A stretch of 41,232 bases of DNA. It comes from an uncultured Gammaproteobacteria bacterium. GTDB lineage: Bacteria > Patescibacteriota > Microgenomatia > UBA12405. The position numbers were made by a program, and so were the translations under genes. Where the stretch lies: NCBI GenBank assembly GCA_964405765.1, contig CAYOPC010000004.1, forward strand, positions 1 through 41,232, written 5' to 3'. Shown one piece after another: positions 3,634 to 41,061 of this stretch (positions are counted from its first letter, which is position 1; the number at the start of each line of letters is the position of its first letter). Below the pieces are notes generated by a model. That model did not search any database and was not told the DNA's origin. It worked only from the letters and a program-made list of their open reading frames with translations.

Positions 3634-3757
3634 CTCAATCTCCCCTTAATCCCCTCTTTCACAAGAGGGGAAAATAAAACCCCTCAGCCCCGACTAAAGT
3701 CGGGACAGCTCCCTCGCCTCGAATCCGAGTTGGAGCGGGCATTGAAAAATAGAGGGC
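3634..3757 (+). repeat. two abutting palindromic repeat units (type A + type B with nested hairpin)
   Basis: CAATCTCCCC..CCCCTCTTTCACAAGAGGGGAAAA, followed by AAACCCCTCAGCCCCGACTAAAGTCGGGACAGCTCCCT[CGCCTCGAATCCGAG..]. Nearly the same string recurs at 21936..22017. Confidence 0.85.
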
Positions 3758-3773
3758 TTTAAGACAATAATTA

Positions 3774-4085
3774 TTGGTGAAGATTACTTTCTTTAATTCT
3801 GATATTGATAAATTTATTCAAAGCCTAAATAAATCGACTTATTCAAAAGTACTTCGCCACCTTAAACTTTTAGAAACTTACGGTCCTCGGTTAACCATGC
3901 CATATTCTAAACCAATATCGCGCAATTTATTTGAACTTCGAAGCAGAGGTAATCAAGAAATTCGTTTGTTTTATTGCTTCTATAAAAATCAAATTGTGAT
4001 TTTGCATGGCTTTATTAAAAAATCTCAAAAAACGCCATCAAGAGAAATTAATTTAGCTTTACAAAGAATTTCCAATTTGCCATAA
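3774..4085 (+). CDS. type II toxin, RelE/ParE superfamily (HigB-like / phage Gp49-like)
   Basis: 103 aa. The pattern LELLETYGP...LFELR...EIRLFYCF..NQIVILHGFIKKSQKTP..EI matches the Gp49/HigB-like killer family. TTG or GTG start. The toxin gene precedes the HTH gene, as in hig-type modules. Confidence 0.8.
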   Translation: MVKITFFNSDIDKFIQSLNKSTYSKVLRHLKLLETYGPRLTMPYSKPISRNLFELRSRGNQEIRLFYCFYKNQIVILHGFIKKSQKTPSREINLALQRISNLP

Positions 4086-4110
4086 TATAACATATATGTT
4101 ATAAATAATT

Positions 4111-4401
4111 ATGAATAATAAATTTAATCCAACTTCATTCAAAGACTTTTTTGACAAGTCCATGAAGGATCCAGAAATTAAGGCTGGATACGATCGTCTT
4201 GGTCCAGAGTATGAAATCATCAATGCTTTAATCAAAAAAAGAATTGCCAAAAAAATTTCTCAAAAGGATTTGGCGACCAAAATAGGAACCAAACAATCAG
4301 CTCTTTCCCGTTTAGAATCCGGCACTTACAACCCGTCACTTATCTTTCTGAAAAAAGTTGCGGCTGCTCTCGATTGTCAATTACACATCACTTTAAAATA
4401 A
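4111..4401 (+). CDS. XRE-family helix-turn-helix antitoxin (HigA-like)
   Basis: 96 aa. HTH core ISQKDLATKIGTKQSALSRLESG. Lies 25 nt downstream of the toxin gene. Confidence 0.78.
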   Translation: MNNKFNPTSFKDFFDKSMKDPEIKAGYDRLGPEYEIINALIKKRIAKKISQKDLATKIGTKQSALSRLESGTYNPSLIFLKKVAAALDCQLHITLK

Positions 4402-4412
4402 ATCTTTGAATC

Positions 4413-4466
4413 AAAACTTACTCGTCCCTCGACAAGTTCGGGATGCCTTCCATTGAAAATGGAGAA
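4413..4466 (+). repeat. palindromic repeat unit (divergent type D)
   Basis: AAAACTTACTCGTCCCTCGACAAGTTCGGGATGCCTTCCATTGAAAATGGAG. Same two-hairpin plan as 36682..36738. Confidence 0.7.
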
Positions 4467-4486
4467 ATCTTAAAACAAAACCTATC

Positions 4487-5083
4487 TTATTCCAAATCCC
4501 CTTCCGCTTCGCGGCTTTCCCCTTTGACAAAAGGGGAACTTTTAACCAAATATTTTCTTTTTAAAATTAAATAGACACTTTTGGCGGTGACACCGTCGGG
4601 CCATTCGGGCCAATGGCCAGTAATATAACCATTTTCTCCACGACTAGTATCAATTTGCCAACCCCATTTTTGATAAATTTCGATAGTTTTAGTGTTGTGA
4701 GTGTAAATTCCAAGTAATAAATCGCGATTTTGAGAAAAAGCCAAAACTTTTTGATAGAGTTTTTTACCGATACCTTGGTGCTGATAAGATGGAAGAACGT
4801 AAAAACCGGAAAATTCGGCTTTATTTTCATTAATTATTTTACAGGTGGCCGAAGCAATTAACTTTTTATTATCAAAAACCAACCAGGTTTTTTGATCAGA
4901 AGAGTTAATTAATTTAGTGGCTAGATATTTTTGAGTGTCCAGAGTATTAAAAACTTGAGAAGAAAAACATTCTTTGGTTAAACCAATTTCTGGATTAGTA
5001 TAAGCAGATTCGTAGGTTTGCTGAAGTAAATCAGTGTATGGTTTTAGATCGGTGAGAGTGGCCAGATGAATTTTAAGAGGCAT
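4487..5083 (-). CDS. GNAT family N-acetyltransferase
   Basis: Acetyl-CoA binding motif VLPSYQHQGIGKKLYQKV. The C-terminal ~17 aa (SSPFVKGESREAEGDLE) are encoded by repeat unit 4494..4538. Confidence 0.72.
   Translation of the reverse strand: MPLKIHLATLTDLKPYTDLLQQTYESAYTNPEIGLTKECFSSQVFNTLDTQKYLATKLINSSDQKTWLVFDNKKLIASATCKIINENKAEFSGFYVLPSYQHQGIGKKLYQKVLAFSQNRDLLLGIYTHNTKTIEIYQKWGWQIDTSRGENGYITGHWPEWPDGVTAKSVYLILKRKYLVKSSPFVKGESREAEGDLE
4494..4538 (+). repeat. palindromic repeat unit (type E-like) forming the 3' end of the GNAT ORF
   Basis: AAATCCCCTTCCGCTTCGCGGCTTTCCCCTTTGACAAAAGGGGAA, made of hairpins CCGC-TTCG-CGG and TCCCCTTT-GACA-AAAGGGGA. Confidence 0.75.
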
Positions 5084-5101
5084 TTAGTGAAATTTTAACA
5101 G

Positions 5102-5151
5102 AAAACCTCTCTGTCACTTCGTGATATCTCCCCTTAAAAAAGGGAGAAGTC
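5102..5151 (+). repeat. palindromic repeat unit (type D)
   Basis: AAAACCTCTCTGTCACTTCGTGATATCTCCCCTTAAAAAAGGGAGAAGTC. Near-identical copies at 36682 and 40419. Confidence 0.9.
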
Positions 5152-5168
5152 ATTAATCTTTCATTTTT

Positions 5169-7798: not shown

Positions 7799-10128
7799 AC
7801 GAGTCTATATTAATGGGTTATGTAAATACTTTAGTATCGGTTTTAGTACTGACGGTATTAATTAGCGGTTTATTGTTTTTGATTTTTTGGGGATTAATAA
7901 TGTGGTTTAAATGGAAAGATAGAGAAGAAAAATCTTTAAAACAGGTGAATTTGTTGGTGGCAGTACCTCAAGATAATGAAGTAAAGATTGACGCTATGGA
8001 ACAGATTTTGAATTCGTTTGGAAGTATGTATAAGAATGCTAAAGTAAAAATTTGGCAATTATTTATGAGTCAACCAAATGCTTCGTTGGAGATTATTGGA
8101 ACTGACGAAGATATTAAATTTTATGTGTCAGTACCAGAGAAATATCAGGATTTAATTGAGAAACAAATTTACAGTGTCTATGCCGGAGCCGACATTAAAG
8201 TAGTAGAAGAACCCAATATTTATACTAAAGACGGAGCGGTGGAATATGCCTGGTTAGGACTAAAAAAACTTCCCCATTATCCGTTGAAAAGCTACAAAGA
8301 AATTTCGACTGATCCATTGGCAGCGATAACTTCGGCTTTGTCAAAACTTAATAAAGATGAAACTGTGGCGATACAGTTAGTAATAACACCAACAGATGGT
8401 TCGTGGTCAAAAATAGGTAAGAGTTTTATCAGCAGCACCAAAAAAAGCGAGTCAAATCCGGAAAAGGCATCTTATAAGGTAGATGCTAAACAACTAGAAG
8501 GAATTGAGCAAAAATGCGGTAAGACAGGTTTAGAAACGGTAGTCAGGATTGTGGCGGTGGCACCAAATAAAGAAATTGCTAAAATGAATATTTCGAATAT
8601 TAAAGCCTGTTTTGGGCAATTTGAATCACCGTGGAATAAATTTAGCAGTAAGAAAATTTACTTAAAATCGATGTTTATGGATGATTTTATTTATAAATAT
8701 CCGGTAATGTTTTGGGTTAAACACAAAACAATTTTGTCGGTAGATGAGTTAGCGTCGATTTTTCATTTGCCAAACAAACAGATAGTGACGCCAAATATTT
8801 ATTGGCTGAAAGCTAAAAAAGCCCCAGCACCAGTAGATTCACCACAAGAGGGGTTGTATGTGGGAGATAATTTGTACCGAGGTGTAACTAAAAAGTTTTG
8901 TATGACACTGACTGATAGACAAAGGCACTTTTATATAGTCGGACAAACCGGTGTGGGTAAATCGTGGTTACTAGCAGATATGGCGTTGCAGGATATTAAA
9001 GCCGGTAAAGGAGTGTGTTTTATTGATCCGCATGATACTTTTGAAAGTATACTGGAAAGAATTCCCCCGGAAAGAGTGGATGATGTGATTTATTTTGATC
9101 CATCACAAACCGAGCGGCCGATGGGTTTTAATGTGATGGAGTGCGAACGGGAAGACCAAAAAGATTTCGTGACCTCGTCAATTATTAACTTAATGTACAA
9201 ACTATATGATCCTTATAAAACCGGTATCGTCGGCCCTAGATTTGAACATGCTATCAGGAATATTATGTTGACAGTAATGACAGAGCCGGGAGCAACTTTT
9301 ATTGAAATTGTCCGTTGTTTGACAGATCAAAGTTACGTTCAGGAAATTTTACCAAAAGTAAAAGATCCGATGGTCAGGCGTTATTGGACAGATCAAATTG
9401 CTCAAACAAGTGACTTTCATAAATCAGAAGTGCTGGATTATATCGTGTCGAAATTCGGTCGGTTTATTACTAACACAATGATGAGAAATATTATCGGTCA
9501 GAGTACATCTTCGTTTAACTTCCGCCAGGCGATGGACGAGGGGAAAATTTTAATCATTAATTTGGCTAAGGGAACTATCGGTGAGGAAAATTCAGCCTTC
9601 TTGGGTTTGGTGTTGATTCCTAAAATTCTGATTGCGGCGATGAGCCGTCAGGATATCCCAGAAGACAAACGAAGAGATTTTTATTTATATGTAGACGAAT
9701 TCCAAAATTTTGCGACTCAAGACTTTGCTGTGATTTTATCAGAAGCCAGAAAGTATCATTTGAATTTGACGGTGGCTAACCAATTTATTTCTCAAATGGA
9801 TGATGAGGTTAAAAATGCGGTGTTCGGAAATGTAGGGACAATTTGCAGTTTTAGATTGGGTATTTCGGACGCTGGATTTTTGACCAAGCAGTTCCAGCCA
9901 GAATTTGGAGAACATGATTTACTCAACTTGGGAACCGGAGAAATTTATTTAAAAACTATGGTGAATGGAATACCAAAAGATCCATTTTCTTTGAAAGTGG
10001 CAGCAATAGAAAAGAAAAAGCCAGGTAACCCAAAAATGGCGGAAGCAATTAAAAGATTGTCAGCACTAAAATACGGTAGGCCGAGATCGATTGTAGAAGC
10101 GGAAATAGCACAGAGAGCGAGATTATAA
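7795..10128 (+). CDS. VirD4/TraG/TraD-like coupling-protein-type P-loop ATPase with N-terminal membrane anchor
   Basis: N-terminal TM helix. Walker A is HFYIVGQTGVGKSW and Walker B is FYLYVDEFQNF. The following LSEARKYHLNLTVANQ segment is typical of the TraD/VirD4/HerA-like family. Confidence 0.7.
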   Translation: MNESILMGYVNTLVSVLVLTVLISGLLFLIFWGLIMWFKWKDREEKSLKQVNLLVAVPQDNEVKIDAMEQILNSFGSMYKNAKVKIWQLFMSQPNASLEIIGTDEDIKFYVSVPEKYQDLIEKQIYSVYAGADIKVVEEPNIYTKDGAVEYAWLGLKKLPHYPLKSYKEISTDPLAAITSALSKLNKDETVAIQLVITPTDGSWSKIGKSFISSTKKSESNPEKASYKVDAKQLEGIEQKCGKTGLETVVRIVAVAPNKEIAKMNISNIKACFGQFESPWNKFSSKKIYLKSMFMDDFIYKYPVMFWVKHKTILSVDELASIFHLPNKQIVTPNIYWLKAKKAPAPVDSPQEGLYVGDNLYRGVTKKFCMTLTDRQRHFYIVGQTGVGKSWLLADMALQDIKAGKGVCFIDPHDTFESILERIPPERVDDVIYFDPSQTERPMGFNVMECEREDQKDFVTSSIINLMYKLYDPYKTGIVGPRFEHAIRNIMLTVMTEPGATFIEIVRCLTDQSYVQEILPKVKDPMVRRYWTDQIAQTSDFHKSEVLDYIVSKFGRFITNTMMRNIIGQSTSSFNFRQAMDEGKILIINLAKGTIGEENSAFLGLVLIPKILIAAMSRQDIPEDKRRDFYLYVDEFQNFATQDFAVILSEARKYHLNLTVANQFISQMDDEVKNAVFGNVGTICSFRLGISDAGFLTKQFQPEFGEHDLLNLGTGEIYLKTMVNGIPKDPFSLKVAAIEKKKPGNPKMAEAIKRLSALKYGRPRSIVEAEIAQRARL

Positions 10129-10131
10129 AAC

Positions 10132-10177
10132 AAACCCTAACCCTACCCTTTCCCTTGACAGGGCAAGGGTAAAAAAA
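10132..10177 (+). repeat. palindromic repeat unit (type C)
   Basis: AAACCCTAACCCTACCCTTTCCCTTGACAGGGCAAGGGTAAAAAAA. Confidence 0.9.
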
Positions 10178-10197
10178 TAACCCCGAAAACGGAGTTA
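10171..10197 (-). terminator. rho-independent terminator downstream of the recombinase gene
   Basis: The minus strand reads TAACTCCG-TTTT-CGGGGTTA followed by TTTTTTT. Confidence 0.55.
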
Positions 10198-10219
10198 TTA
10201 ATTAATCACGTAATTATTT

Positions 10220-11086
10220 TTATAATTCTTTGAGTTTGATACCGCGGGCTTCGTCTTTGGCTTCGATTAATTCAAGGTATTTTTCGGTAGTAGAAATACG
10301 TTTGTGACCGACGACTTGAGAGACAACATCAATAGGAACACCGGATTTGAGTTGAAAGACAATAAAAGTGTTACGTAAGTCGTTAACTTTGATGTCTTTA
10401 AGATCAGCTTTATTAAAAAACCGATTTAAAAGACTTCTGATATTTCTGGCTAATAAAGTTTTGCCGGTTTTGGTAACAAAAACATTTTTTGAGCGGCCAG
10501 GATAGCGGCCTTCGGCTAAGTATTTTTGGAGGGCAAGTTTAGCAGAATTGTTTAACGGGACGTTTCTAGACGGATGGCTCTCATAACTTTCAATAAAAAT
10601 ATCGTTATCTTTGATATTGTCTAATTTTAAGTTTTCGATTTCTTTGATACGAAGTCCGGCCTGAAGCATAAGTTCAACGATAGCAGTAGCCCGAGTGTCA
10701 TTACGGCAGGCATCACGAAGTGAACGGTATTCAATTGGTTTTAAGATTTTTGGAGTATCATTTTCATATTTGGGATGTTTAACTTCAGTTGACGGATCAA
10801 TTTCAATTAAGGCTTCATTTTTTAAGAAAGAAAAAAAATTCTTAATAGAATTAAGCTTACGGGAAATTGATTTGGCAGTATAGTCGTTTTTAGCTAAATC
10901 TTCCTTGAAATCGTTAATATGTTCCGGAGTAATGAGATTAATATCTCCTACTCCTCTGGCTGACAAAAAAGCAAACAATTGGTTGATATCACCCTTGTAG
11001 GCTACAATAGTATTAGTGGACTTGCCTTTCTGGGTAAGCGCCTGAGTGAAGGTATTTAATGAACTATTGAAAGATAAATCAGCCAT
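10220..11086 (-). CDS. tyrosine recombinase, XerC/XerD family
   Basis: N-terminal SAM-like domain (NTIVAYKGDINQLFAFL). Catalytic region has AGLRIKEI and VVGHKRISTTEKYLEL (the R..H-x-x-R..Y pattern). Confidence 0.85.
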   Translation of the reverse strand: MADLSFNSSLNTFTQALTQKGKSTNTIVAYKGDINQLFAFLSARGVGDINLITPEHINDFKEDLAKNDYTAKSISRKLNSIKNFFSFLKNEALIEIDPSTEVKHPKYENDTPKILKPIEYRSLRDACRNDTRATAIVELMLQAGLRIKEIENLKLDNIKDNDIFIESYESHPSRNVPLNNSAKLALQKYLAEGRYPGRSKNVFVTKTGKTLLARNIRSLLNRFFNKADLKDIKVNDLRNTFIVFQLKSGVPIDVVSQVVGHKRISTTEKYLELIEAKDEARGIKLKEL

Positions 11087-11144
11087 GGTTATAGATATTT
11101 AAAACGACTTATAATAACATAAATTAGGACAATTTACAAATACT

Positions 11145-11504
11145 ATGAAAAGAATAAAGAATTCAGTATTATTAATACTGTCAATAATTATCCTAATATC
11201 AACAATTTTTAATGTTATAAACCAGTATAACACCCTGAAAAGAGCCAAGAAAAAAAATGAGGAACTTAGGGTAAGTCTGGAAAAAATGGAAACCAAAAAA
11301 CAACAATTAATTAAAAAAATAGAATATGCGACGACCAGTGCTTATATAGACCAACAAAAGAGGGAATTGTTGGCTTTGGGGACAGAGGGAGATGTATGGT
11401 TGGATTTGCCTAAAAATGAAGAGAAAATGGAATATAAACCAGAGATAAATGAGACAACAACAGAAACAAATTGGGAAAAGTGGATAAAACTGTTTACTGA
11501 TTAA
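11145..11504 (+). CDS. FtsB/DivIC-like septum-formation protein (single TM + coiled coil)
   Basis: 119 aa. An N-terminal TM helix is followed by a heptad-rich segment (KKKNEELRVSLEKMETKKQQLIKKIEY). The call rests on architecture only. Confidence 0.4.
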   Translation: MKRIKNSVLLILSIIILISTIFNVINQYNTLKRAKKKNEELRVSLEKMETKKQQLIKKIEYATTSAYIDQQKRELLALGTEGDVWLDLPKNEEKMEYKPEINETTTETNWEKWIKLFTD

Positions 11505-13288: not shown

Positions 13289-13293
13289 CACAT

Positions 13294-13328
13294 TAGATAT
13301 TAGATGATAGATCTTAGATCGTAGAAAA
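13294..13328 (+). repeat. five tandem heptads TAGATNN
   Basis: TAGATAT TAGATGA TAGATCT TAGATCG TAGAAAA, lying between two tRNA genes. Confidence 0.7.
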
Positions 13329-13337: not shown

Positions 13338-13391
13338 GGGTATGTAGCTCAGTTGGTTAGAGCAGTCCGAAATTTCGGACGAGTCCATGGT
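13338..13391 (+). pseudogene. 5' portion of a tRNA-like gene (acceptor 5' strand to T-stem 5' strand), truncated
   Basis: GGGTATG-TA-GCTC-AGTTGGTTA-GAGC-A-GTCCGAAATTTCGGAC-GAGTC-CATGG, then unrelated sequence. There is no matching 3' acceptor strand until 13552..13558. Confidence 0.6.
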
Positions 13392-13502: not shown

Positions 13503-13559
13503 TGGTTAGAGCAGTCCGAAATTTCGGACGAGTCCATGGTCTGAGTCCATGCATACCCA
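13503..13559 (+). pseudogene. 3' portion of the same tRNA-like gene (D-loop to 3' end), lacking a 5' acceptor strand
   Basis: Repeats 38 nt of 13354..13391 exactly, then continues CTGAGT-CCATG-CATACCC-A. That supplies the T loop, T stem and an acceptor strand complementary to GGGTATG at 13338. Confidence 0.6.
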
Positions 13560-13719
13560 CCCGTGGTACTGAAAAATATTTTGCTTGTAAATATATCCCC
13601 CTCTTTCATTCGATCAAGGAAATCTACTATTATCTTGAATTAAGCAGGGTCAACAGGTCTGGAGTCTCCGCCAGAAGCGGACAGGCATGCATGCCCACAA
13701 AAAAATTAGTATCTAATAT

Positions 13720-15154: not shown

Positions 15155-15267
15155 AAGTTTATTGATAGTTAAATTTTAACATTAAGAAAAAAGATTACTC
15201 CGATAAATCGGAGTTTGATAAATAGGCAAAATTTCTTCGTCTTTAACTTGAAATTTAGTCCTATTTA

Positions 15268-15423: not shown

Positions 15424-15475
15424 AAAACCCACCCCCTCCGAAATTTCGGAGACTCTCCCTTGATGAAGGGAGGGC
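15424..15475 (+). repeat. palindromic repeat unit (type E-like)
   Basis: AAAACCCACCCCCTCCGAAATTTCGGAGACTCTCCCTTGATGAAGGGAGGGC. Its first hairpin holds the 14-mer TCCGAAATTTCGGA, which is also found in the tRNA-like gene at 13366 and 13515. Confidence 0.8.
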
Positions 15476-15537: not shown

Positions 15538-15613
15538 ACACCTTAGTTTATAAGAGCCGAGGTCAGGTAGTCCCGCAGCGGCGGGACGAAGGGGCGCTAG
15601 GCAGACAAAAATA

Positions 15614-16294
15614 ATGACCAAAGAAAAACATCAAGTGAAGGCAACCACCAGAACTGTTGCTGGGAGAAAAGTTAAACACTTAAGAAAAGAGGGGTTTTTA
15701 CCAGCAACTGTTTATGGAAAAGCTTTTGAGTCTTTATCGGTTCAGTTTAATGCGGCTGAAATTGAAAAATTATTTAATGACATTGGAGAATCAACTTTAG
15801 TTGAGGTGATTTTGGATGAAAAAGAAAAATTACCTGTTCTTTTTAGAAACCCTCAATACCATCCAGTGGAAGGAAATATGATTCATATTGACTGTTATAA
15901 AGTTAATTTGAAAGAAAAGATTTCGGCAATGGTACCAATTGAATTTGTAGGCGAATCTCAAGCGGTTAAAGATGGTAATACTTTGGTAACAGTTACTGAT
16001 GAAGTAGAAATTGAAGCTTTGCCAGCTGATTTGCCAGAAAGTATTGAAGTTGATTTGGCGGTTTTGGATAATTTGGAAGCAACTATTACTGTGGCTGATC
16101 TAAAAATTGATACTTCTAAACTAGAAGTTTTGACTGATGCTGAACAATTGATTGCTAAGGTTGAAGAACCACGAGCTGAAGAAGAAGTGGCTCCGGTTGA
16201 AGAAACAACTCCGGTTGATGTACCAGCGATGAATCAAAAGACTGACGAAGAAAAGGAAGCTACAGCTAAAGCCAAAGAGGAAGAAAAAGAATAA
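15614..16294 (+). CDS. rplY: 50S ribosomal protein L25/general stress protein Ctc
   Basis: The N-terminal GRKVKHLRKEGFLPATVYGK motif and an acidic C-terminal extension are typical of long-form L25/Ctc. Confidence 0.9.
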   Translation: MTKEKHQVKATTRTVAGRKVKHLRKEGFLPATVYGKAFESLSVQFNAAEIEKLFNDIGESTLVEVILDEKEKLPVLFRNPQYHPVEGNMIHIDCYKVNLKEKISAMVPIEFVGESQAVKDGNTLVTVTDEVEIEALPADLPESIEVDLAVLDNLEATITVADLKIDTSKLEVLTDAEQLIAKVEEPRAEEEVAPVEETTPVDVPAMNQKTDEEKEATAKAKEEEKE

Positions 16295-16743: not shown

Positions 16744-16792
16744 CTCAATCTTCCCCTATTCCCCCTTCTTTCACAAGACGGGGGTAAAACAA
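16744..16792 (+). repeat. palindromic repeat unit (type A)
   Basis: CTCAATCTTCCCCTATTCCCCCTTCTTTCACAAGACGGGGGTAAAACAA. Confidence 0.9.
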
Positions 16793-16804
16793 TTCCTTTT
16801 ATAA

Positions 16805-19150
16805 TTAATTTTTACCTGTAGGCCAGGAGGAAGAAATTAAAAGTTCTTTGGGTAAATTATACTGGGAAATTAGGTCTTGATAAACAGTTTCGGTGATAAA
16901 AGGAATAAAGGGATGAAGTAGTTTGAGACAGGTTATTAAGACTGTTAATAAAACTGAAACAATAATTTCGGCATTTGATTTGTCCGAATATTCGGGTGAA
17001 TCAAGTCTTTTTTTGGCGCCTTCGATATAGATATCACAAAATTCGTGCCAAAAAAATTGGTAAAGGTCTTCGCTGGCTTGGCCAAAACGATAATTATTTA
17101 AATTTTTGGTAGTGGAAATAATTAAATCATTAAGTTTGGTGAGAATAGATTGATCAGCTTGATTCAAACCCTTCCCCAACCCTTCCCTTGACAGGGCAGG
17201 GAGATCTAATGTGGAAATTTTGAGGTCGGGATTGGTTTCGCGGAGGCGGTCGATAAGCATTTCGACAAAGCGGGAGGCGTTCCAAATTTTGTTAACGAAA
17301 TTGCGTTGGGCGCGGATTTTATCTTCGGAAACGACAAAATCACTAGCCGGAGCAATACCATAAACCAGAGACATACGGAGAGCATCAGTGCCATATTTTT
17401 CGGTCATATCAAGCGGATTAATGACATTGCCTTTGGATTTACTCATTTTTTGGCCTTTGGCATCGGTAACTTTGGAGTGAAGATGAACAGTTTTGAAAGG
17501 AACATCACCAGTTAGATAAAGACCAAACATGGTCATGCGAGCGACCCAAAAAAATAAAATGTCCCACAAAGTGTCCATGACGGTGGTGGGGTAAAAATAA
17601 TCAAAATCAGGGGAAGATTTAGAAGGATCAGTGGTGTTGAATTCAAGAGTACTGAGAGGCCATTGGCCACTTAAAAACCAAGTATCAAAAGTATCAGTTT
17701 CCTGAATTAAATTTTTGGACTGACATTTGGGACAAGAATCAAGATGTTCGACAGTAAAATTAGTACCGACAGGGGCAACTAAGGATTGCAGACCATTATT
17801 AATTTCATCAAAAGAATATTTATCTTTTAAATCACGATAAAAACCAGAAACTATATTCTTATTTTTGTCGAGAAAATTTAATTTGATGTCAGGATGACAA
17901 TCTAAACAATACCAAGCCGGAATACGAGGTCCCCAAACAATCTGACGGGATATGTTCCAATCACGAATATTTTCCATCCAAGTAGTAAAGGATTTTTTGA
18001 AACGAACGGGGAAAAATTTGAGTTTGCCAGTTTTGGCAGCGTCGATAGCGGGCTTGGCAAGGGAATCGATTTTGACATACCATTGAGGAGCAGTGATAGG
18101 TTCGATGGGGTGGCCACAACGATAACAATGACCAACTTCATGAGAATAGTTTTTAATTTTTTCCATGAAACCGGCGGCAGTTAAGTCGTCGATAACCATT
18201 TGGCGAAGCTTCTGGGGGTAAAAACCACGATATTTTTCGGGGACATTGTTGTTGGATTTACCGTCGTAATCGAAGATGCGAACAAACTCTAAATTGTGTT
18301 TTTTGGCCATGTCATAATCTTCGGGAGAATGAGACGGAGTGACTTTAACAGCACCGGTACCAAATTCCATATCAATAGTATCTTCCCCTATTACAGGGAT
18401 TTCTTTGTTGACTAATGGGAGAGTAACGGTTTTATCAATTAAATTCCTATATCTTTCGTCCTTGGGATTAACAGCGACAGCAGTATCGCCAAGCATGGTT
18501 TCGGGACGGGTAGTAGCAACAGTTATGGGGCCATATTTAATGTACCAAAGATGAGAGTCGACAGTTTTATGATCAACTTCGAGATTGGAAAAAGCAGTGC
18601 CGCAACGAGTACAGTAATTAACGATTTTTTCATCGCGATATACCAGACCATCCTGATAAAGTTTTTTGAAAGTAGCTAAAACATTTTCGACAATGGCTGG
18701 TTCTAAACTGTAGTGATAACGAGTCCAATCCATAGAAAAACCGAGTTTCTTCATTTGGAATTGATTTAGTTTTCGGTTATCTTCGACAAAATCCCAAATC
18801 ATTTGGTAAAGAGTTTGGCGATCAAAATCAAAACGACTTTTGCCCTCTTTGGCTAATCTTTTTTCAAAAACAAATTGGGTTTCAATACCGGCGTGATCAC
18901 CACCCGGCAACCAAAGAGTGGGTTGACCAAGCATGCGGTGGAAACGGACTAAAATATCTTGGATAGTGAACAGAGCGTGACCCATGTGCATGGGATCGTT
19001 GGCATTGGGAAGTGGAAGAATTATGGAATAAGGATTATCTTTAATTTTGGCAACTTTGGGATTTTTGGGGACTTTGGGAGTGAAGGCGCCAGAATTTTGC
19101 CAAAGGTCGTAAATTTGGGCCTCAGATGCGGGATTGTAAACTTTGTCCAT
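16805..19150 (-). CDS. valS: valine--tRNA ligase (short form, no long C-terminal coiled coil)
   Basis: PLPNANDPMHMGHAL (HIGH-type), WLPGGDHAGIETQ and KMSKSKGN, with a CP1 editing-domain-sized insert. 781 aa. Confidence 0.88.
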   Translation of the reverse strand: MDKVYNPASEAQIYDLWQNSGAFTPKVPKNPKVAKIKDNPYSIILPLPNANDPMHMGHALFTIQDILVRFHRMLGQPTLWLPGGDHAGIETQFVFEKRLAKEGKSRFDFDRQTLYQMIWDFVEDNRKLNQFQMKKLGFSMDWTRYHYSLEPAIVENVLATFKKLYQDGLVYRDEKIVNYCTRCGTAFSNLEVDHKTVDSHLWYIKYGPITVATTRPETMLGDTAVAVNPKDERYRNLIDKTVTLPLVNKEIPVIGEDTIDMEFGTGAVKVTPSHSPEDYDMAKKHNLEFVRIFDYDGKSNNNVPEKYRGFYPQKLRQMVIDDLTAAGFMEKIKNYSHEVGHCYRCGHPIEPITAPQWYVKIDSLAKPAIDAAKTGKLKFFPVRFKKSFTTWMENIRDWNISRQIVWGPRIPAWYCLDCHPDIKLNFLDKNKNIVSGFYRDLKDKYSFDEINNGLQSLVAPVGTNFTVEHLDSCPKCQSKNLIQETDTFDTWFLSGQWPLSTLEFNTTDPSKSSPDFDYFYPTTVMDTLWDILFFWVARMTMFGLYLTGDVPFKTVHLHSKVTDAKGQKMSKSKGNVINPLDMTEKYGTDALRMSLVYGIAPASDFVVSEDKIRAQRNFVNKIWNASRFVEMLIDRLRETNPDLKISTLDLPALSREGLGKGLNQADQSILTKLNDLIISTTKNLNNYRFGQASEDLYQFFWHEFCDIYIEGAKKRLDSPEYSDKSNAEIIVSVLLTVLITCLKLLHPFIPFITETVYQDLISQYNLPKELLISSSWPTGKN
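17166..17203 (+). repeat. palindromic repeat unit (type C) inside valS, in frame
   Basis: AAACCCTTCCCCAACCCTTCCCTTGACAGGGCAGGGAG, translated on the minus strand as ..LPALSREGLGKGLN.. within ValS. Confidence 0.85.
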
Positions 19151-19271
19151 GAGGATATTTTAGCACGAAACTCTTTTTATCTGTCCTTTGACAGAACAAA
19201 AGTTTAATGAAAAAGATGATAATGTAGATAAGTTTTTATTTATATAAAAAATTTTTTGGTTTTAGAAAATA

Positions 19272-19949
19272 ATGGAAAATACTGGCGAAAAATTTATAGC
19301 AATAAAGCATAGTGATAATAGTCAAACTACTGTTGAGCTCATAAATAAAGAGGACGGCAAAATTCATTCGGGATTACATAAGGTTGTTGCCGCAGTTTTG
19401 TCAAAAGACGGCGAAGATGATGGGAGAAAGATAGAAATCCCTATGATTAGAAAAAAAGTAGCATCCGCAGATGGTTATTGTGAATATTGGGAAAGATTAA
19501 GAAAGGCCGCTATTCCGACTATACCTACCGTTAGGAAAATTAGTGAAAATGAAGTTTTAATGACCGATTTAACAAAAGACGGAAGTTCATTTTATGGTAA
19601 AGATAGTGTTTTTGGTTGTTTTAATAGATTTAAAAAAAATGAAATTAATATCTTAGATAGGTATTTTTTAGCTATTCAGACAAGTGTTTTAGAAAACGAG
19701 ATAAGGGGGATATCTCGTAAAGCTGATGAAAATGGAATAGTTTTACCGATTGACGACCCGTTTGATTTATTGGTTCATCCTGGTGGTAGTTGGGAAGTAT
19801 TAGTACTAGACCTAGAAACAGAAAGCTACAATACTTCAGAAGATCAGATTAGGATGTTTAATATTGAGAGTGTTGGTCATTATTTGACTTTGCTGAAAAT
19901 AAATAGAAATAGTTTATTAGGGAAAGAACCCCCATCGATTATTTCTTAG
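19272..19949 (+). CDS. hypothetical protein (faint kinase-fold-like motif)
   Basis: 225-aa ORF. VLMTDLTKDG and DLLVHPGG..VLVLDLE loosely resemble the hinge and catalytic/DFG-like segments of APH/RIO-type small kinases. This is not secure. Confidence 0.45.
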   Translation: MENTGEKFIAIKHSDNSQTTVELINKEDGKIHSGLHKVVAAVLSKDGEDDGRKIEIPMIRKKVASADGYCEYWERLRKAAIPTIPTVRKISENEVLMTDLTKDGSSFYGKDSVFGCFNRFKKNEINILDRYFLAIQTSVLENEIRGISRKADENGIVLPIDDPFDLLVHPGGSWEVLVLDLETESYNTSEDQIRMFNIESVGHYLTLLKINRNSLLGKEPPSIIS

Positions 19950-19983
19950 GTCTAATCTGGTTGGGTAGAATTTACTAGAAAAT

Positions 19984-20602: not shown

Positions 20603-20671
20603 GCCAATTAGACTAGGTTGATGATATAATTTATGTGATAGAAATAGTGGAAATTAAGACAAAACCTAATG

Positions 20672-24123: not shown

Positions 24124-24170
24124 TTAAGAATTAATAATTAATAGTTAATAATTAATAGTTAAGAGTTAAT
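24121..24170. repeat. AT-rich TAATTAA-type motif block
   Basis: TAATTAAGAATTAATAATTAATAGTTAATAATTAATAGTTAAGAGTTAAT. Related blocks at 24518, 26693, 31181 and 40292. Confidence 0.75.
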
Positions 24171-26257: not shown

Positions 26258-26674
26258 TTAAAAACGGTTATCCATGGCCTGATTGGCTAGTTGGTCAGCT
26301 AATTTATTAAATTCACGGCGAACATGGGTGTATTTGATGGGTAGATTGATTTGAGTAAGTAATTGTTGAACTTGGGCAAAGAGGGGTAAGAGGGTTGGGG
26401 CTTTAACTTTATAGATGCCTTGAAGTTGACGAATCATGAGCTGAGAGTCGGCAAAAAAATTTACCTGAGAAATCCGATAAAGGGTTTGGTGTTTTTTAAC
26501 CCATTCCAGAGCAGCAATAATACCAGAATATTCAGCTTCATTGTTGGTTTTTATGCCCAAAAATTTTTCTTCCTGATAAAGCGGTTTATTTTGATCGTCG
26601 TAAATAACTAAGCCATAACCGGAAACACCCGGATTACCCCGAGAACCACCATCAGTATAGACATTGATAAGCAT
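26258..26674 (-). CDS. rnhA: ribonuclease HI
   Basis: VYTDGGSRGNPG, TNNEAEYSGIIAAL, DSQLMIRQ and the C-terminal NKLADQLAN catalytic pattern (D-E-D-D). Confidence 0.88.
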   Translation of the reverse strand: MLINVYTDGGSRGNPGVSGYGLVIYDDQNKPLYQEEKFLGIKTNNEAEYSGIIAALEWVKKHQTLYRISQVNFFADSQLMIRQLQGIYKVKAPTLLPLFAQVQQLLTQINLPIKYTHVRREFNKLADQLANQAMDNRF

Positions 26675-26692: not shown

Positions 26693-26729
26693 AATAATTA
26701 CTAATTAATAATTAAGAATTAATAGTTAA
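26693..26729. repeat. AT-rich AATTAATAATTAAGAATTAAT motif
   Basis: AATAATTACTAATTAATAATTAAGAATTAATAGTTAA, 18 nt upstream of the rnhA start and abutting repeat 26728. Confidence 0.75.
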
Positions 26730-26775
26730 ACCCTTTGTCGTGATAAATCACGACATTTCCCTTAAAAAGGGAAAC
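26728..26775 (+). repeat. palindromic repeat unit (type E)
   Basis: AAACCCTTTGTCGTGATAAATCACGACATTTCCCTTAAAAAGGGAAAC. Confidence 0.9.
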
Positions 26776-26785
26776 TAAAAAGGTT

Positions 26786-29122: not shown

Positions 29123-29184
29123 AAACCTTAACCCGACCCTGTTTCCTAACCCTCCACTTCGGCAGGCAGGGCAAGGGTAAAAAA
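29123..29184 (+). repeat. palindromic repeat unit (type C with nested hairpin)
   Basis: AAACCTTAACCCGACCCTGTTTCCTAACCCTCCACTTCGGCAGGCAGGGCAAGGGTAAAAAA. Confidence 0.85.
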
Positions 29185-31180: not shown

Positions 31181-31216
31181 TTAATTAATAATTAAGAATT
31201 AATAATTAATATTAAT
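31181..31216. repeat. AT-rich AATTAATAATTAAGAATTAAT motif
   Basis: TTAATTAATAATTAAGAATTAATAATTAATATTAAT, starting 2 nt upstream of the comF-like ATG. Confidence 0.75.
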
Positions 31217-31217
31217 A

Positions 31218-31520
31218 CACAATCTCCCCCTAACCCCCTTCTTTGACCCACCGACAGTTTCTCAGTCTGGTGGGCAGGCAAGAGGGGGAATCAAAACCCC
31301 TCAGGCTCGCTTTTCTCGCCAGCTCCCCTTGATAAAGGGGAGCAATTTTTCTTTATAGTGTCCGTGGTAGGATGAGGATAAAACCCTTTGTCACGATAAA
31401 TCGTGACATTTCTCCCGCAGTAGCGGGACTTACGCCTTAAAAAGGGAAACTTTAAAATAAACCCTAACCCTTCCCTTTCCCTTGACCCTCCAGAGGCGGG
31501 CAGGCAGGGCAAGGGTAAAG
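31218..31520 (+). repeat. cluster of four palindromic repeat units (A-nested, B, E-nested, C-nested)
   Basis: Units at about 31218..31296, 31293..31343, 31380..31450 and 31459..31520. Three of them carry an extra hairpin inserted in their own loop. Confidence 0.85.
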
Positions 31521-32040: not shown

Positions 32041-32087
32041 GTCCCGCAGTAGCGGGACTACGGCGTGACGCAGTCCGCTTTTTTTTG
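32041..32087 (+). terminator. hairpin(s) plus T-run downstream of ssrA
   Basis: GTCCCGC-AGTA-GCGGGAC, then ..GTCCGC followed by TTTTTTTT. Confidence 0.45.
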
Positions 32088-32109: not shown

Positions 32110-32376
32110 GTGTCAGAATTATTTATATATTGGGTTTATATATTGAAATGTAGTGATAATGGATTTTATGTTGGATGTACTGATGATTTAAAGAAAAGGA
32201 TAGAAAATCATAAAAATGGTGAAGTTAAAGAAACGAAATATAGATTACCAATAACTTTAAATAGTTATTTTGGTTTTAAAGAGAAACAAATTGCTTTTAA
32301 TTTTGAAAAGTATTTAAAAACAGGATCAGGTAGAGCTTTTGCTAAAAAGCATTTCAGGATTATGGTCACTGAGTGA
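32110..32376 (+). CDS. GIY-YIG nuclease-domain protein (UPF0213/YhbQ-like)
   Basis: YWVYILKCSDNGFYVGCTDDLKKRIENHKNG is a GIY-YIG core. 88 aa with a GTG start. Confidence 0.72.
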   Translation: MSELFIYWVYILKCSDNGFYVGCTDDLKKRIENHKNGEVKETKYRLPITLNSYFGFKEKQIAFNFEKYLKTGSGRAFAKKHFRIMVTE

Positions 32377-36681: not shown

Positions 36682-36815
36682 AAACCTCTCTGTCCCTCGA
36701 CGAGCTCGGGACATCTCCCCTTAAAAAAGGGAGAAGTCTTTAAGACAAAACCCACCCTTTGATTTAAACCCCTCAGACTCGCTTTGCTCGTCAGCTCCCT
36801 TTGATTAAGGGGAGC
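36682..36815 (+). repeat. palindromic repeat units (type D, short remnant, type B)
   Basis: AAACCTCTCTGTCCCTCGACGAGCTCGGGACATCTCCCCTTAAAAAAGGGAGAAGTC ... AAACCCCTCAGACTCGCTTTGCTCGTCAGCTCCCTTTGATTAAGGGGAGC. The 3' flank TTATAGTTTGCCAGTGGCAGACTGAGG resembles 31353..31378. Confidence 0.85.
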
Positions 36816-36860
36816 AATTTTTTTTATAGTTTGCCAGTGGCAGACTGAGGTTTGTAATTT

Positions 36861-37142
36861 TTAAAATTTACAAACTAATTCACAAACAGCTGCACAAAAA
36901 CCCCCAGGTGAATGACGACAGGGGGAAGTACAGGAATCGAACTGACCCAAAACAGAAGCACAAAGAAAAGAAAGTTTATAACTACCAGACCGCATTAAAT
37001 AACATTCATTATATTCAGAAGAATATTTTCCCCCAATACTAAGACAGGTGTTTTTAAATCTAGATCTTTGAAAAAGAATATAAATAATAATTAAGACTAT
37101 TACAGATAGAATACTTAGAAAAAATTTTAATTTTTTGGGCAT
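36861..37142 (-). CDS. small membrane-anchored 8-cysteine protein (paralog 1)
   Basis: 93 aa with an N-terminal TM anchor. The conserved C-terminus SC.SPCRHSPGG.C...CE.VCKF is shared with the neighbouring ORF. Confidence 0.6.
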   Translation of the reverse strand: MPKKLKFFLSILSVIVLIIIYILFQRSRFKNTCLSIGGKYSSEYNECYLMRSGSYKLSFLCASVLGQFDSCTSPCRHSPGGFCAAVCELVCKF

Positions 37143-37179
37143 ATTTTTAAGGAGATTTTTGGTTAGTAATTTTCAATTT

Positions 37180-37452
37180 TTAAAATTTACAAACTTGTTC
37201 ACACATAGTAATACAGACACCTCCTGGTGAATGGCGGCAAGGTGAGGCACAGGAACTATATTCGCTACCAGTTAGAGTACACAACAATCTGAGGACCTTA
37301 CCACCTTGACATTCGCGATAATCAGAAAGATATTTACCGCCACTAAGAGTACAGATTGTTGAAGGTTGATATTTTTTGAGAAAAATACCAAACAAATAAA
37401 GAAATAAAAATATTATTGGAATAATTAAAAGATATTTTATTTTTTTTGACAT
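37180..37452 (-). CDS. small membrane-anchored 8-cysteine protein (paralog 2)
   Basis: 90 aa with the same architecture and the same eight Cys positions as 36861..37142. Starts 6 nt after the stop of the 612-aa gene. Confidence 0.6.
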   Translation of the reverse strand: MSKKIKYLLIIPIIFLFLYLFGIFLKKYQPSTICTLSGGKYLSDYRECQGGKVLRLLCTLTGSEYSSCASPCRHSPGGVCITMCEQVCKF

Positions 37453-39296: not shown

Positions 39297-39308
39297 TAAT
39301 TAATGATA

Positions 39309-39539
39309 CTACAAAGCCAACATACTTAGGACCAAAATTACAGAAAAAATTAAGTGAATAAAAGAAAAAATAATCAGAACAATATTAAATTTATCGGTGA
39401 TACTTTTGGACATAGAGGTGACTTGTTTAACTACGATCAGGGCAAAAATTACATAGAGGATAGAAAGTATAATAAAAAATATTTTGGTAATACCAAAAAA
39501 ATAGCTACCGAGATTATTAAAATCAGTCAGGTCAAGCAT
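39309..39539 (-). CDS. small two-TM membrane protein
   Basis: I place the start at the ATG at 39539 (MLDLTDFNNLGSYFFG..), which overlaps the upstream stop (ATGCTTGA). 76 aa with two hydrophobic helices. Confidence 0.5.
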   Translation of the reverse strand: MLDLTDFNNLGSYFFGITKIFFIILSILYVIFALIVVKQVTSMSKSITDKFNIVLIIFSFIHLIFSVILVLSMLAL

Positions 39540-40278
39540 GCTTGCCTCCTTTTTGTTCTTCCAAATCACGTAACTCTTTGAGAAGTTTAATAATTTTTTC
39601 TGGATTAGGGACTTTTTCAAAATTAATCTGATTAATTTCAGAGGCGGTTTGAATGAGAACATCGCCATAATTAAAGAAAGTTCCCAAAAGACCTTTGACT
39701 GAAGAAGAAACATCCTGAATCATGGAAAGATCAGCTTCAGCAAAATGCTTGTTGAGAAGATTGTTAAAATCAATATCAACAACTCTTTCATTGGTAATTA
39801 GGAAAACATTAAAATACCAGCTGAGAAACTTTTCGAAGGCGTAAATAAAAGTAAAAAGATACCAAAAGAGAACGGCGGAAAATTGAAATTGACCGGGGAA
39901 AAAATTTAAAAAGCTAAAATAATGAAAAAATAGAGGGACAAAAAGCATAAGAATGCCAACAAAAACCCAATGAAGATTAGTAATCCAATGAGGTCGAATA
40001 GCTAAATAGATTTCTTCACCTTCGTCTCGCTCCGAAAAAGAAAAGATTTTGGGACGAACAAGAAAAGAGGAAAATGGAGTTTTGGTATGACCTAAAATAT
40101 CATAAATTTTTCGATAAAAATCTTCGTCATGGTCTGGTTTTTGAGAGGAGACTTTAACAGATTTTGAAGATTTTTCTTTGGTGATAGAAGGTTTGATGGG
40201 ATCTGTTTTTTTGGCTGATGGAGAAGTAACTACCGGGTCATCCGGAGCAATAGTATCTAAATCTTTGGAACGGATCAT
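39532..40278 (-). CDS. bacterial PH-domain (YdbS/YdbT-like) membrane protein
   Basis: Two central TM helices are followed by ITNERVVDIDF....DVLIQTAS, typical of bPH_2 domains. Confidence 0.65.
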   Translation of the reverse strand: MIRSKDLDTIAPDDPVVTSPSAKKTDPIKPSITKEKSSKSVKVSSQKPDHDEDFYRKIYDILGHTKTPFSSFLVRPKIFSFSERDEGEEIYLAIRPHWITNLHWVFVGILMLFVPLFFHYFSFLNFFPGQFQFSAVLFWYLFTFIYAFEKFLSWYFNVFLITNERVVDIDFNNLLNKHFAEADLSMIQDVSSSVKGLLGTFFNYGDVLIQTASEINQINFEKVPNPEKIIKLLKELRDLEEQKGGKHA

Positions 40279-40291
40279 AGCTTATTATAGC

Positions 40292-40323
40292 AATTAATAA
40301 TTGATAATTAAGAATTAACAATT
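40292..40323. repeat. AT-rich AATTAATAATTAAGAATTAA motif
   Basis: AATTAATAATTGATAATTAAGAATTAACAATT, 13 nt upstream of the PH-domain gene start. Confidence 0.7.
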
Positions 40324-40345
40324 CTGTTTTTTTTCGATATTGATT

Positions 40346-40467
40346 CCGTCTCCTTAAATTCTTCTTTAACCAGCCTACCCTGAAGCTACGGCTTGGCGAA
40401 GCAGGGCAGGACTTTTTTAAACCTCTCTGTCACTTCGTGACATCTCCCCTTAATAAAGGGAGAAGTC
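40346..40467 (+). repeat. palindromic repeat units (divergent A with nested hairpin, then type D)
   Basis: ..CTTCTTTAAC[CAGCCTACCCTGAAGCTACGGCTTGGCGAAGCAGGGCAGG]AC.. then AAACCTCTCTGTCACTTCGTGACATCTCCCCTTAATAAAGGGAGAAGTC. Confidence 0.8.
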
Positions 40468-40468
40468 T

Positions 40469-41017
40469 TTAAAAATTAATCAAATGGTTTAACTGTAATA
40501 GATTTTTGATTTGGGAGGCGATGAAGTTGGCGTTGGATTTGGGAGGAAGGTGAAGAAAAATTTGTTTGGTGTTGAGATGTTTTTGGTTAATATGAAGTTG
40601 AATAGAATAGGCCATCCAATTACAATTATAAGTACCCATGTTGGAACTGATGGCAAAAAATTGAGAGTCGAAATTATCGAGTGGCGGCAAACTTAGATCG
40701 AGAAGAATGGGAGAAAAAGGATAAATCGGTTGATTATTGTAAGCATTTTTGGCTTGGGTTTCGATACGAATTTTGGAGAAATTACCATATATATCACCAA
40801 GACCGATAATCAGGTCATAATGGTTGTGGGCAATGTATTTTTGAAAAAATTGGCGAGGGTGAAAATAAATTAATTGATAAACCCTTTCCGCCAGAGGCGG
40901 ATTTCCCTTAAAAAGGGCAATTTTATCTTTTTCTTCTAGAATTTTTTGTAATTCTAGTAAAGTTCGGTGAGAAATGTTGGTGCCCCATTGATTGGAAAAA
41001 GCATAGATTAGGATCAT
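40469..41017 (-). CDS. pyroglutamyl-peptidase I (C15)-like protein carrying an in-frame repeat unit
   Basis: DLIIGLGDIYGNFSKIRIETQAKN, SSNMGTYNCNWMAY and IFLHLPP resemble the C15 pattern (..lG.a.gr..i..Er.A.N.., ..S..AGtyvCN..Y.., ..FiHvP). Confidence 0.45.
   Translation of the reverse strand: MILIYAFSNQWGTNISHRTLLELQKILEEKDKIALFKGNPPLAERVYQLIYFHPRQFFQKYIAHNHYDLIIGLGDIYGNFSKIRIETQAKNAYNNQPIYPFSPILLDLSLPPLDNFDSQFFAISSNMGTYNCNWMAYSIQLHINQKHLNTKQIFLHLPPKSNANFIASQIKNLLQLNHLINF
40879..40918 (+). repeat. palindromic repeat unit (type E) inside the C15-like ORF, in frame
   Basis: AAACCCTTTCCGCCAGAGGCGGATTTCCCTTAAAAAGGGC, translated on the minus strand as ALFKGNPPLAERV. Confidence 0.85.
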
Positions 41018-41061
41018 AAACCCTATCCCTACCCTTTCCCTTGACAGGGCAAGGGTAAAAA
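41018..41061 (+). repeat. palindromic repeat unit (type C)
   Basis: AAACCCTATCCCTACCCTTTCCCTTGACAGGGCAAGGGTAAAAA, starting 1 nt after the C15-like start codon. Confidence 0.9.

Follow-up and report, generated by a model that had tools for sequence, protein, structure and literature searches.

We analysed a 41,232-nt stretch of DNA (contig CAYOPC010000004.1 of assembly GCA_964405765.1, positions 1-41,232, forward strand; referred to below as the window) that carries many short, hairpin-forming repeat units among its genes. The host is a tiny-genome bacterium of Candidatus Shapirobacteria, in the Microgenomates group of the candidate phyla radiation (CPR); NCBI gives the name Candidatus Shapirobacteria to a protein that shares a 90% cluster with one of the window. 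Genes lie on both strands and include the housekeeping genes for DnaG, RpoD, ValRS, TrpRS, L25, a TsaC/TsaE fusion, TsaD and SmpB, together with tmRNA and tRNA genes. The G+C content is ∼37% and the GC skew is positive throughout, with no switch of sign. Direct reading between 3635 and 41064 gave 28 repeat units, which fall into five families (A-E), plus some six palindromic modules that stand alone, in all ∼3.8% of the DNA. This agrees with the preliminary description of the sequence, in which about 30 modular, co-oriented units had been counted.

An exact 24-nt repeat core is present in 45 loci from assemblies labelled Candidatus Shapirobacteria or Patescibacteria. These loci (8 kb each, from ∼25 related Candidatus Shapirobacteria species) were used for comparison and are called the related loci; together with the window they make up 371 kb. 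Labels such as L006, L012, L043, L126 and L128 denote individual loci or contigs of relatives. The family leader/core patterns gave 5 + 6 + 3 + 5 + 2 matches on the + strand of the window and 0 on the − strand. Profiles built from the window copies gave 21 nhmmer matches, all on the + strand, to which direct reading of the intergenic regions adds units with nested inserts and lone palindromes. Pairs of repeated 14-mers in the window were direct in 431 cases and inverted in 17.

The elements belong to two size classes, units of 40-60 nt and palindromic modules of 16-32 nt, the latter nested in loops of the former. The 5′ part of a 40-60 nt unit is a pyrimidine-rich leader beginning AAACC or CAATCT, followed by an optional first hairpin; the 3′ part is a hairpin with a pyrimidine 5′ arm, a loop of the TTGAC or TTAAA type and a purine 3′ arm, followed by an A-rich tail. 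A sixth kind of element, F, is 19-32 nt long (CC.CC-loop-GG.GG, then GCAGGC) and sits in the hairpin loop of A, B and C units. The lone modules named in the preliminary description at 15197-15214, 15570-15587 and 32041-32058, and the nested copy at 31413-31429, were all confirmed. The elements of the window are:

3635-3680, + strand: A unit with CAATCT leader, C-tract, single hairpin CCCCTCTT-TCAC-AAGAGGGG and A-tail.
3677-3765, + strand: D unit with an extra hairpin nested in hairpin 2; a 94-nt copy at 21936 is 85% identical.
4413-4478, + strand: C-like unit, first hairpin GTCCCTCGA-CAAGT-TCGGGAT.
5103-5156, + strand: C unit with two hairpins.
10132-10178, + strand: B unit 4 nt past the stop of a HerA-like gene; the orthologous copy in L012 is 98% identical, the flanks 76-80%.
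13365-13380, + strand: palindromic module GTCCGAAATTTCGGAC in place of the anticodon arm of a tRNA-Ile(TAT); second copy at 13514-13529.
13667-13686, + strand: lone F-like element TCCGC-CAGAA-GCGGA-CAGGC.
15197-15214, no strand assigned: lone palindrome ACTCCGATAAATCGGAGT.
15424-15475, + strand: D/E-like two-hairpin unit, first hairpin CTCCGAAATTTCGGAG.
15570-15587, no strand assigned: lone palindrome GTCCCGCAGCGGCGGGAC, upstream of the L25 gene.
16745-16793, + strand: A unit.
17166-17205, + strand: B unit in ValRS (gene on the − strand), in frame (PALSREGLGKGLN); absent from L028 and L043, present in L012.
20560-20604, + strand: B unit giving an HD-domain gene its stop codon; the 98%-identical L126 has heptamers and an A unit instead.
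20673-20713, + strand: A unit upstream of TsaC/E; absent from L043.
20715-20775, + strand: D unit with two hairpins; absent from L043.
21462-21510, + strand: A unit, in frame in the TsaC-TsaE linker; elsewhere the slot holds a C-like (L043, L128), B (L006, L034) or E-like (L016) unit or is empty (L014).
21642-21690, + strand: B unit in frame in TsaE (TLTPSPFPLTGQGEK); B also in L006, L016 and L034, C-like in L128, empty in L043 and L014.
21937-22025, + strand: D unit with nested hairpin, past the TsaC/E stop; absent from L128.
23047-23097, + strand: B unit, in frame in TsaD, carrying an F element (23068-23088) that is nested after TTGAC; L006 has B but no F, L128 a C unit, and L043 and L014 no unit.
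23417-23553, + strand: A-B-A triplet coding 46 aa of TsaD, in frame; L043 has B alone, L006 a D-like unit and L016 none.
26728-26783, + strand: E unit with two hairpins, fold z = -7.4; L126 has an A-like unit, a hairpin and a D-like unit instead.
29123-29183, + strand: B-like unit with nested F element 29151-29170.
31217-31297, + strand: A unit with a 32-nt nested F element (31248-31279) following TTGAC.
31294-31345, + strand: D unit.
31381-31456, + strand: E unit with module TCCCGCAGTAGCGGGAC nested at 31413-31429.
31459-31519, + strand: B unit with nested F element 31487-31505 following TTGAC; upstream of tmRNA.
32041-32058, no strand assigned: lone palindrome GTCCCGCAGTAGCGGGAC between the 3′ end of tmRNA and its terminator.
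36682-36743, + strand: C unit, first hairpin GTCCCTCGA-CGAGC-TCGGGAC; several same-species metagenome contigs end here.
36747-36765, + strand: leader-only fragment AAAACCCACCCTTTGATTT.
36766-36817, + strand: D unit, 90% identical to the unit at 31294.
40419-40472, + strand: C unit, 94% identical to the unit at 5103.
41018-41064, + strand: B unit lying directly against the start codon of a gene on the − strand (40469-41017).

A two-hairpin plan had been proposed for all units. DNA folding upheld this plan for families C, D and E (12 of the 28 units), whereas A and B (16 of 28) form a single hairpin after an unpaired C-rich leader. Two of the "first hairpins" listed at that stage, CCGC-TTCG-GCGG and CCGCC-AGA-GGCGG, are in fact separate 19-32 nt elements that sit within the single hairpin loop of B units (at 23068-23088 and 31487-31505). 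The first-hairpin modules are combinatorial, since GTCAC-N3-GTGAC, GTCCCTCGA-N5-TCGGGAC and GTCGAT-AA-ATCGAC are each found in at least two of the frames C, D and E.

The proposal that structure is conserved while the stem sequence varies was borne out. Most units gave DNA fold z values of -2 to -7. In the first hairpins, 80% of end-anchored positions were paired, vs. 40% after shuffling (31 distinct sequences). The B hairpin was 88% paired over 58 distinct copies, with four pairs changed on both sides and a covariation score greater than those of all 500 shuffles; its nine core pairs are uninformative either way because they are nearly invariant. Compensatory changes were also found in family E (GTCGTGAT/ATCACGAC vs. 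GTCACGAT/ATCGTGAC) and in family D, where the stem G[A/G/T]C..G[T/C/A]C has A-T, G-C or T-A at position 2:16 and C-G or T-A at position 3:15.

The pyrimidine leader of A, D and E units mirrors the 5′ arm of their hairpin (for example at 16751-16772, 20718-20752 and 26731-26766). Examples are TCTTCCCCC|TT|CCCCCTTCT in A, CCCCTC/CTCCCC in D and CCCTTT/TTTCCC in E, and matching mirror changes occur in variants including those of L021, L043, L006 and L040. Mirror symmetry of this kind is what a sequence needs to form an intramolecular pyrimidine-purine-pyrimidine triplex, and the two turns of this fold coincide exactly with the first hairpin and the F inserts. In a stricter mirror test, the haplotypes for and against numbered 9 vs. 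2 in A, 9 vs. 1 in D, 7 vs. 33 in B and 4 vs. 3 in C. The test supports a triplex reading for A and D but not for B or C, and we keep it as a low-probability lead.

The polarity of the window units is complete: 28 are on the + strand and 0 on the − strand (two-sided binomial p = 1.5e-8 for 27:0 and 1e-6 for 21:0), and they occur inside + strand genes (TsaC/E, TsaD) as well as inside a − strand gene (ValRS). At the related loci, 84 of 105 profile-matched copies lie on the locally G-rich strand (skew sign by strand table 50/13/8/34; Fisher p = 8e-10). Counted by locus, 33 of the 45 have a concordant majority, 4 a discordant majority and 8 are tied. Nine discordant copies pair tail-to-tail with a concordant copy, and head-to-head pairs never occur among the relatives' 105 copies; when the nine tail-to-tail pairs are left out, the split becomes 75:12. 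The claim that every copy points the same way therefore stands as an absolute rule in the window, with its genes on both strands, but becomes a strong bias (∼80-86%) in the relatives. Intragenic copies comprise 24 sense and 14 antisense cases, and intergenic copies are found in all four gene configurations. Orientation is independent of gene direction and follows the G-rich strand. 

A bias relative to the direction of replication had also been suggested. The units do follow the G-rich strand, but "replichore" may be the wrong frame because related Microgenomates show a G excess on one strand along the whole chromosome, for which unidirectional replication has been suggested (PMC7143001). What stands established here is polarity relative to compositional strand asymmetry. 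The units carry C-tracts on a strand that is otherwise strongly C-poor; as this runs counter to the mutational trend, it speaks for units that are renewed and not for long-standing sites kept by selection. The strand composition itself is extremely asymmetric in the window and the 45 related loci, with a GC skew of +0.1 to +0.3 whatever the gene strand. Dozens of 8-mers are skewed 25:1 or more between strands, and many G-containing 8-mers reach 30:1 outside the units. This asymmetry is in line with a chromosome-wide disparity of G and C described in Microgenomates relatives (PMC7143001).

Of the window units, seven are in-frame parts of ValRS, TsaC/E or TsaD, and 38 of 126 hidden Markov model matches (∼30%) are intragenic. 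Window TsaD has 423 aa against a baseline of 341 aa, and ∼19% of it (82 residues) is repeat-coded. Repeat-coded peptides occur at one TsaD site in 61 of 120 TsaD relatives, whose lengths range from 341 to 424 aa. Contigs 99-100% identical to the window (L129-L148) showed no unit differences. L126, a 16.4-kb contig of 97-98% identity, differs from the window mainly at unit sites; within the E unit at 31381-31456, for instance, its first hairpin reads GTCAC[TCCGCTGCTGCGGA]GTGAC vs. GTCAC[GATAAATC]GTGAC in the window. L128 (89% identical) has other families at three protein slots. Polarity was unchanged in the units newly seen in L126 and L128. Where flanks are clearly orthologous, the units are 93-100% identical and the flanks 70-80%. 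This greater likeness of the units, taken with the reuse of slots, fits continual renewal better than ancient conserved copies. The comparison of copy positions between relatives, proposed earlier as a check, thus revealed presence/absence differences, slot replacement and module swaps, and the units are mobile or exchangeable.

Host genes have co-opted unit sequence at 20560-20568 and at 41015-41020. In the former, the HD-domain gene takes its stop codon from the TAA of the B leader (AAA CCC TAA), as it does in L043; this B unit is missing from L126, where the protein has a different end.

A module was also found inside a tRNA gene. Positions 13338-13391 and 13503-13560 together are the orthologue of the tRNA-Ile(TAT) of L012 (L012:2427-2503), in which the anticodon arm has been replaced by the palindrome GTCCGAAATTTCGGAC; the core of this module is the first hairpin of the unit at 15424. 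A 38-nt duplication surrounding a second tRNA-Ile(TAT), which is intact, splits the arm-replaced gene. Hairpins outside the repeat units are thus also targeted or replaced by modules. The intact tRNA has an identical body and an acceptor stem that differs at 5 of 7 pairs in a compensatory manner (GGATGCA/TGCATCC vs. GGGTATG/CATACCC).

Nested F elements follow TTGAC or TTAAC and precede A in 6 of 6 clear cases, of which the window has four, L014 one and L019 one, and their site is the loop of hairpin 2, or of the sole hairpin, in A, B and C units. For whole units, orthologue comparisons showed that the AAA preceding B units is retained at two empty sites. No direct repeats were found flanking the units. 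Target-site duplication was considered for some A units with AAAC or AAAAC at both ends, and was rejected as inconsistent among copies.

We propose, at a probability of roughly 45%, that the units are a clade-specific superfamily of miniature non-coding elements mobilised in trans as single-stranded hairpins on the G-rich strand, in a manner like that of IS200/IS605. The elements would travel as folded single strands of the G-rich strand, exposed as the lagging-strand template during replication. A trans-acting, hairpin-recognising enzyme would cut them out precisely and, with no duplication of the target, reinsert them 3′ of a short motif, which would be TT(G/A)AC for nested elements and an A-run for whole units. 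Precise excision would leave the target intact, so that permissive sites (spacers between genes, loops on the surface of essential proteins, loops of hairpins) may behave as reusable slots for different families in turn; inside genes, only in-frame, stop-free insertions would survive. We infer single-strand chemistry, coupling to replication and an enzyme of this kind from the combination of polarity, conserved hairpins, loop insertion at a fixed motif, lack of duplication and clean slot reuse, which matches the "peel and paste" of IS200/IS605. For these elements, both insertion into the lagging-strand template and excision from it proceed by recognition of hairpins (PMC6006769).

Several points weigh against this proposal. 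About 14-20% of the relatives' copies are reversed, and contig JAEWUV010000003.1 is mixed. The G-rich strand is by textbook reasoning the lagging-strand template, and for this lineage the assignment is taken from that reasoning. Whole-unit junctions are placed only approximately because most comparisons are at 70-90% identity. The single hairpin of A and B units differs from the two subterminal hairpins of IS200/IS605 ends, and slot replacement could equally come from gene conversion between units. Pfam scans of the window's 45 open reading frames (ORFs) detected no Y1/HUH transposase, RAYT or other transposase, as the preliminary description had noted. The search it called for, for TnpA(Y1) or RAYT genes, was run as a screen for the HUH...Y motif on 641 ORFs of the window and the 45 related loci (371 kb) and found none, returning only false candidates. 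A related Microgenomates genome was reported to be without mobile-element genes (PMC7143001). The idea of single-strand mobilisation that accompanied the first reading of the window thus gains from mobility, orientation on the G-rich strand and loop insertion at a fixed motif; its REP/RAYT assignment does not hold, and no Y1 gene turned up in the 371 kb.

Other window proteins include a XerC/D-like recombinase (10220-11086), an RNase H (26258-26674) and a GIY-YIG protein (32110-32376), none of them linked to the repeats. The recombinase, the sole tyrosine recombinase of the window, looks like the housekeeping XerC/D type. The GIY-YIG gene, a stand-alone nuclease gene of 88 aa, lies directly past tmRNA, the lone module and the terminator; it was rejected as the mobilising nuclease because no homologue is present in the 45 repeat-bearing loci.

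An alternative that does without a dedicated transposase is "hairpin swapping", i.e., replication-coupled template switching or short-patch gene conversion between dispersed hairpins, in which a stalled polymerase or annealing strand would use stem bases, leaders and A-tails as microhomology and copy the loop or unit of another locus. The changes among close relatives fit this, being same-slot replacements and not simple gains or losses: in L126 a B unit corresponds to heptamers plus an A unit, an E unit to A-like plus D-like units, and a new palindrome lies within an unchanged GTCAC/GTGAC stem, while three slots are exchanged in L128. The identical first-hairpin modules across C, D and E frames, the exchange of a tRNA anticodon arm for a module of nearly equal length, the higher similarity of orthologous units than of their flanks, and the lack of a transposase in the window and the 641 ORFs point the same way. 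However, the shared homology is very short (3-10 nt), the first arrival at the empty TsaE and ValRS sites requires an insertion mechanism, the fixed TT(G/A)AC target of nested elements looks enzymatic, and gene conversion alone predicts no polarity; we consider this account unlikely on balance. We give still less credence to a further variant, in which the units would be self-organising cassettes with neither an element-encoded nor a dedicated transposase: their movement or copying would be purely replication-coupled and hairpin-templated on the permanently exposed strand of a chromosome that is strand-asymmetric over its full length, and the fold of A, D and E would be an intramolecular triplex with nested inserts at its two turns.

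Polarity could instead arise after non-polar insertion, if orientation were filtered by selection for replication cost or use (pyrimidine/purine mirror tracts, runs of G-tracts or hairpins stalling forks one way), or if the units served the host in a strand-specific way, for instance as priming signals or as sequences that orient a translocase or recombinase. The polarity of the relatives, a bias of 80-86% and not a rule, would suit this explanation, as would the 93-100% identity of orthologous units (flanks 70-80%), the four G3 tracts in the B reverse complement, the mirror leaders of A, D and E, the presence of GGGCAGGG in B2 units, and the extreme strand asymmetry of the genome with many 8-mers at 30:1. 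Yet outside the units GGGNAGGG is unskewed (23:14) and GGGCAGGG nearly absent, and a KOPS- or Chi-like polar signal was rejected on that basis. The mirror relation fails for B and C, the C-tracts on a C-poor strand argue for renewal and not for old selected sites, and one slot holds different families in different species, so that no particular sequence appears to be required at a site. Selection on orientation or a host role is therefore rather improbable in our view. A role at the RNA level (terminators, mRNA stabilisers or small RNAs), with orientation reflecting transcription, is brought to mind by copies just past stop codons (10132, 20560) or beside a start (41018) and by the lone module between tmRNA and its terminator. 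It is largely refuted by orientation independent of the genes (24 sense, 14 antisense) and by copies in coding regions of both gene strands; the hairpin is followed on the common strand by an A-run and not a T-run, no Rfam family matched, and we regard such a role as very improbable.

Among known systems, miniature elements derived from IS200/IS605 and REP/BIME mosaics come closest to the units in how they work. IS608 targets TTAC and ISDra2 targets TTGAT. Both IS200/IS605 elements and their miniature, PATE-like derivatives resemble the units in bearing hairpins, in inserting 3′ of a fixed short motif without target duplication, and in precise loss that leaves a reusable site. A further common feature is a bias in orientation that favours the fork-exposed strand (PMC6006769), which would correspond to the 28:0 of the window and the 84:21 of the relatives if the G-rich strand is the lagging-strand template. 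The units differ in being far shorter (16-60 nt), in having many copies in frame within genes, and, for A and B, in having one hairpin where C, D and E have two; no TnpA was found in the 371 kb, and no full-length parent element is known for them.

Repetitive extragenic palindromic (REP) sequences, including BIMEs and REPINs, are likewise short (20-40 nt), abundant, imperfect palindromes with several families per genome and, in BIMEs, module mosaics similar to those seen here, and REP/RAYT shares the presumed mobilisation in trans by a single-strand nuclease (PMC6006769, PMC3116915). Membership of the units in this group, put forward in the preliminary description, did not hold. The REP head GTAG/CGTC is replaced by AAACC(C/T) or CAATCT, with only two lone modules following GTAG (15567) and CGTC (32038); the units are not extragenic, seven of them being in frame in the window; inverted doublets are lacking in the window, with nine tail-to-tail pairs among the relatives' 105 copies. 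The units are also strongly polar, unlike REP, and no RAYT, a gene that its REPs usually flank, was found in the 371 kb. Nor do they match integron attC sites, imperfect palindromes that bound gene cassettes beside an IntI integrase: the units are dispersed and bound no cassettes, and the only tyrosine recombinase looks like a XerC/D type.

In-frame insertion has a parallel in Rickettsia, whose palindromic elements, as described by Ogata et al. in 2000, reportedly lie in frame in conserved genes and near RNA genes and add a peptide without destroying the gene. We know of no report that these elements are polar, nested or rapidly swapped. The likeness in insertion into conserved protein-coding genes holds for our units, although the Rickettsia elements are ∼100-150 bp long and from another phylum, and the units, of 40-60 nt in Candidatus Shapirobacteria, are set apart by description. 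The small dispersed repeats of Nostoc, attributed to Elhai et al. in 2008, are said to be ∼20-30 nt long, hairpin-capable and of unknown enzymology, and to insert into one another and into other repeats. Our units recall them in nesting and differ in host, theirs being cyanobacterial, and in sequence. Rickettsia palindromic elements are mentioned in PMC1779305, and the paper of Elhai et al. is cited in PMC3116915.

Full-text searches of the literature gave no description of such repeats in Shapirobacteria, Patescibacteria or the CPR, and the units look like miniature mobile DNA of a kind not described before. The usual view of CPR genomes is that they are streamlined and contain little mobile DNA; in this 41-kb window ∼3.8% consists of repeat units. 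Essential proteins are inflated by them, and close relatives differ mainly at these slots, which offers a natural system in which repeat insertion creates new peptide segments. As a strand-polar marker, the units could show how these uncultured bacteria replicate, and if their mechanism is enzymatic it points to a single-strand DNA enzyme yet to be identified. On the practical side, they break metagenome assemblies and can mislead gene calling. Same-species metagenome contigs end in or beside units at ∼36735 of the window (L139, L140, L144, L145) and near 10128-10146 (L135, L136, L138), as is expected of repeats that break assemblies.

In distant CPR relatives (ValRS identity ≤60%; a metagenome scan with ValRS gave ≤65%), the families were absent except for one A and one B match. 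A de novo screen for polar repeats in the ValRS-scan loci was uninformative, most of these loci not being CPR. A phage origin was considered and rejected, the B core having no match in IMG/VR.

Tandem heptamer arrays (TAATTAA, TTAAGAA and TTAGATC types) often lie just 5′ of units, at 13293-13325, 24121-24170, 26693-26729, 31182-31217 and 40292-40323. They differ in the 98%-identical L126, which has TCTAATG and TCTAATT types at about 4942-4975, 11110-11145 and 15670-15715. Heptamers also occur in frame inside TsaD and TsaE of some relatives, as CCAATTT repeats coding FPISNFQF. The tmRNA contains no repeat units, and its extra length is not repeat-derived.

A strain-level change of gene order was seen at a unit site in L134 (L134:1292-1630 vs. 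window 9880-10219), a contig otherwise 99.7% identical. After the XerC/D-like gene, L134 has a 23S-rRNA-IVP-type four-helix-bundle gene at the place where a hairpin, the B unit and the HerA-like gene stand in the window. A 0.8-kb segment at 19170-19989, with a hairpin (TCTGTC-CTTT-GACAGA) at its left edge and a 225-aa ORF (19272-19949) without a Pfam match, is missing from L043 and is replaced by unrelated sequence in the 98%-identical L126. Finally, an 86-nt stretch unrelated to the hairpin units occurs twice, at 36851-36936 and 37170-37255 (77% identical), covering the 3′ ends of two neighbouring paralogous ORFs of 93 and 90 aa with no Pfam match; the repeat begins just beyond each stop codon.

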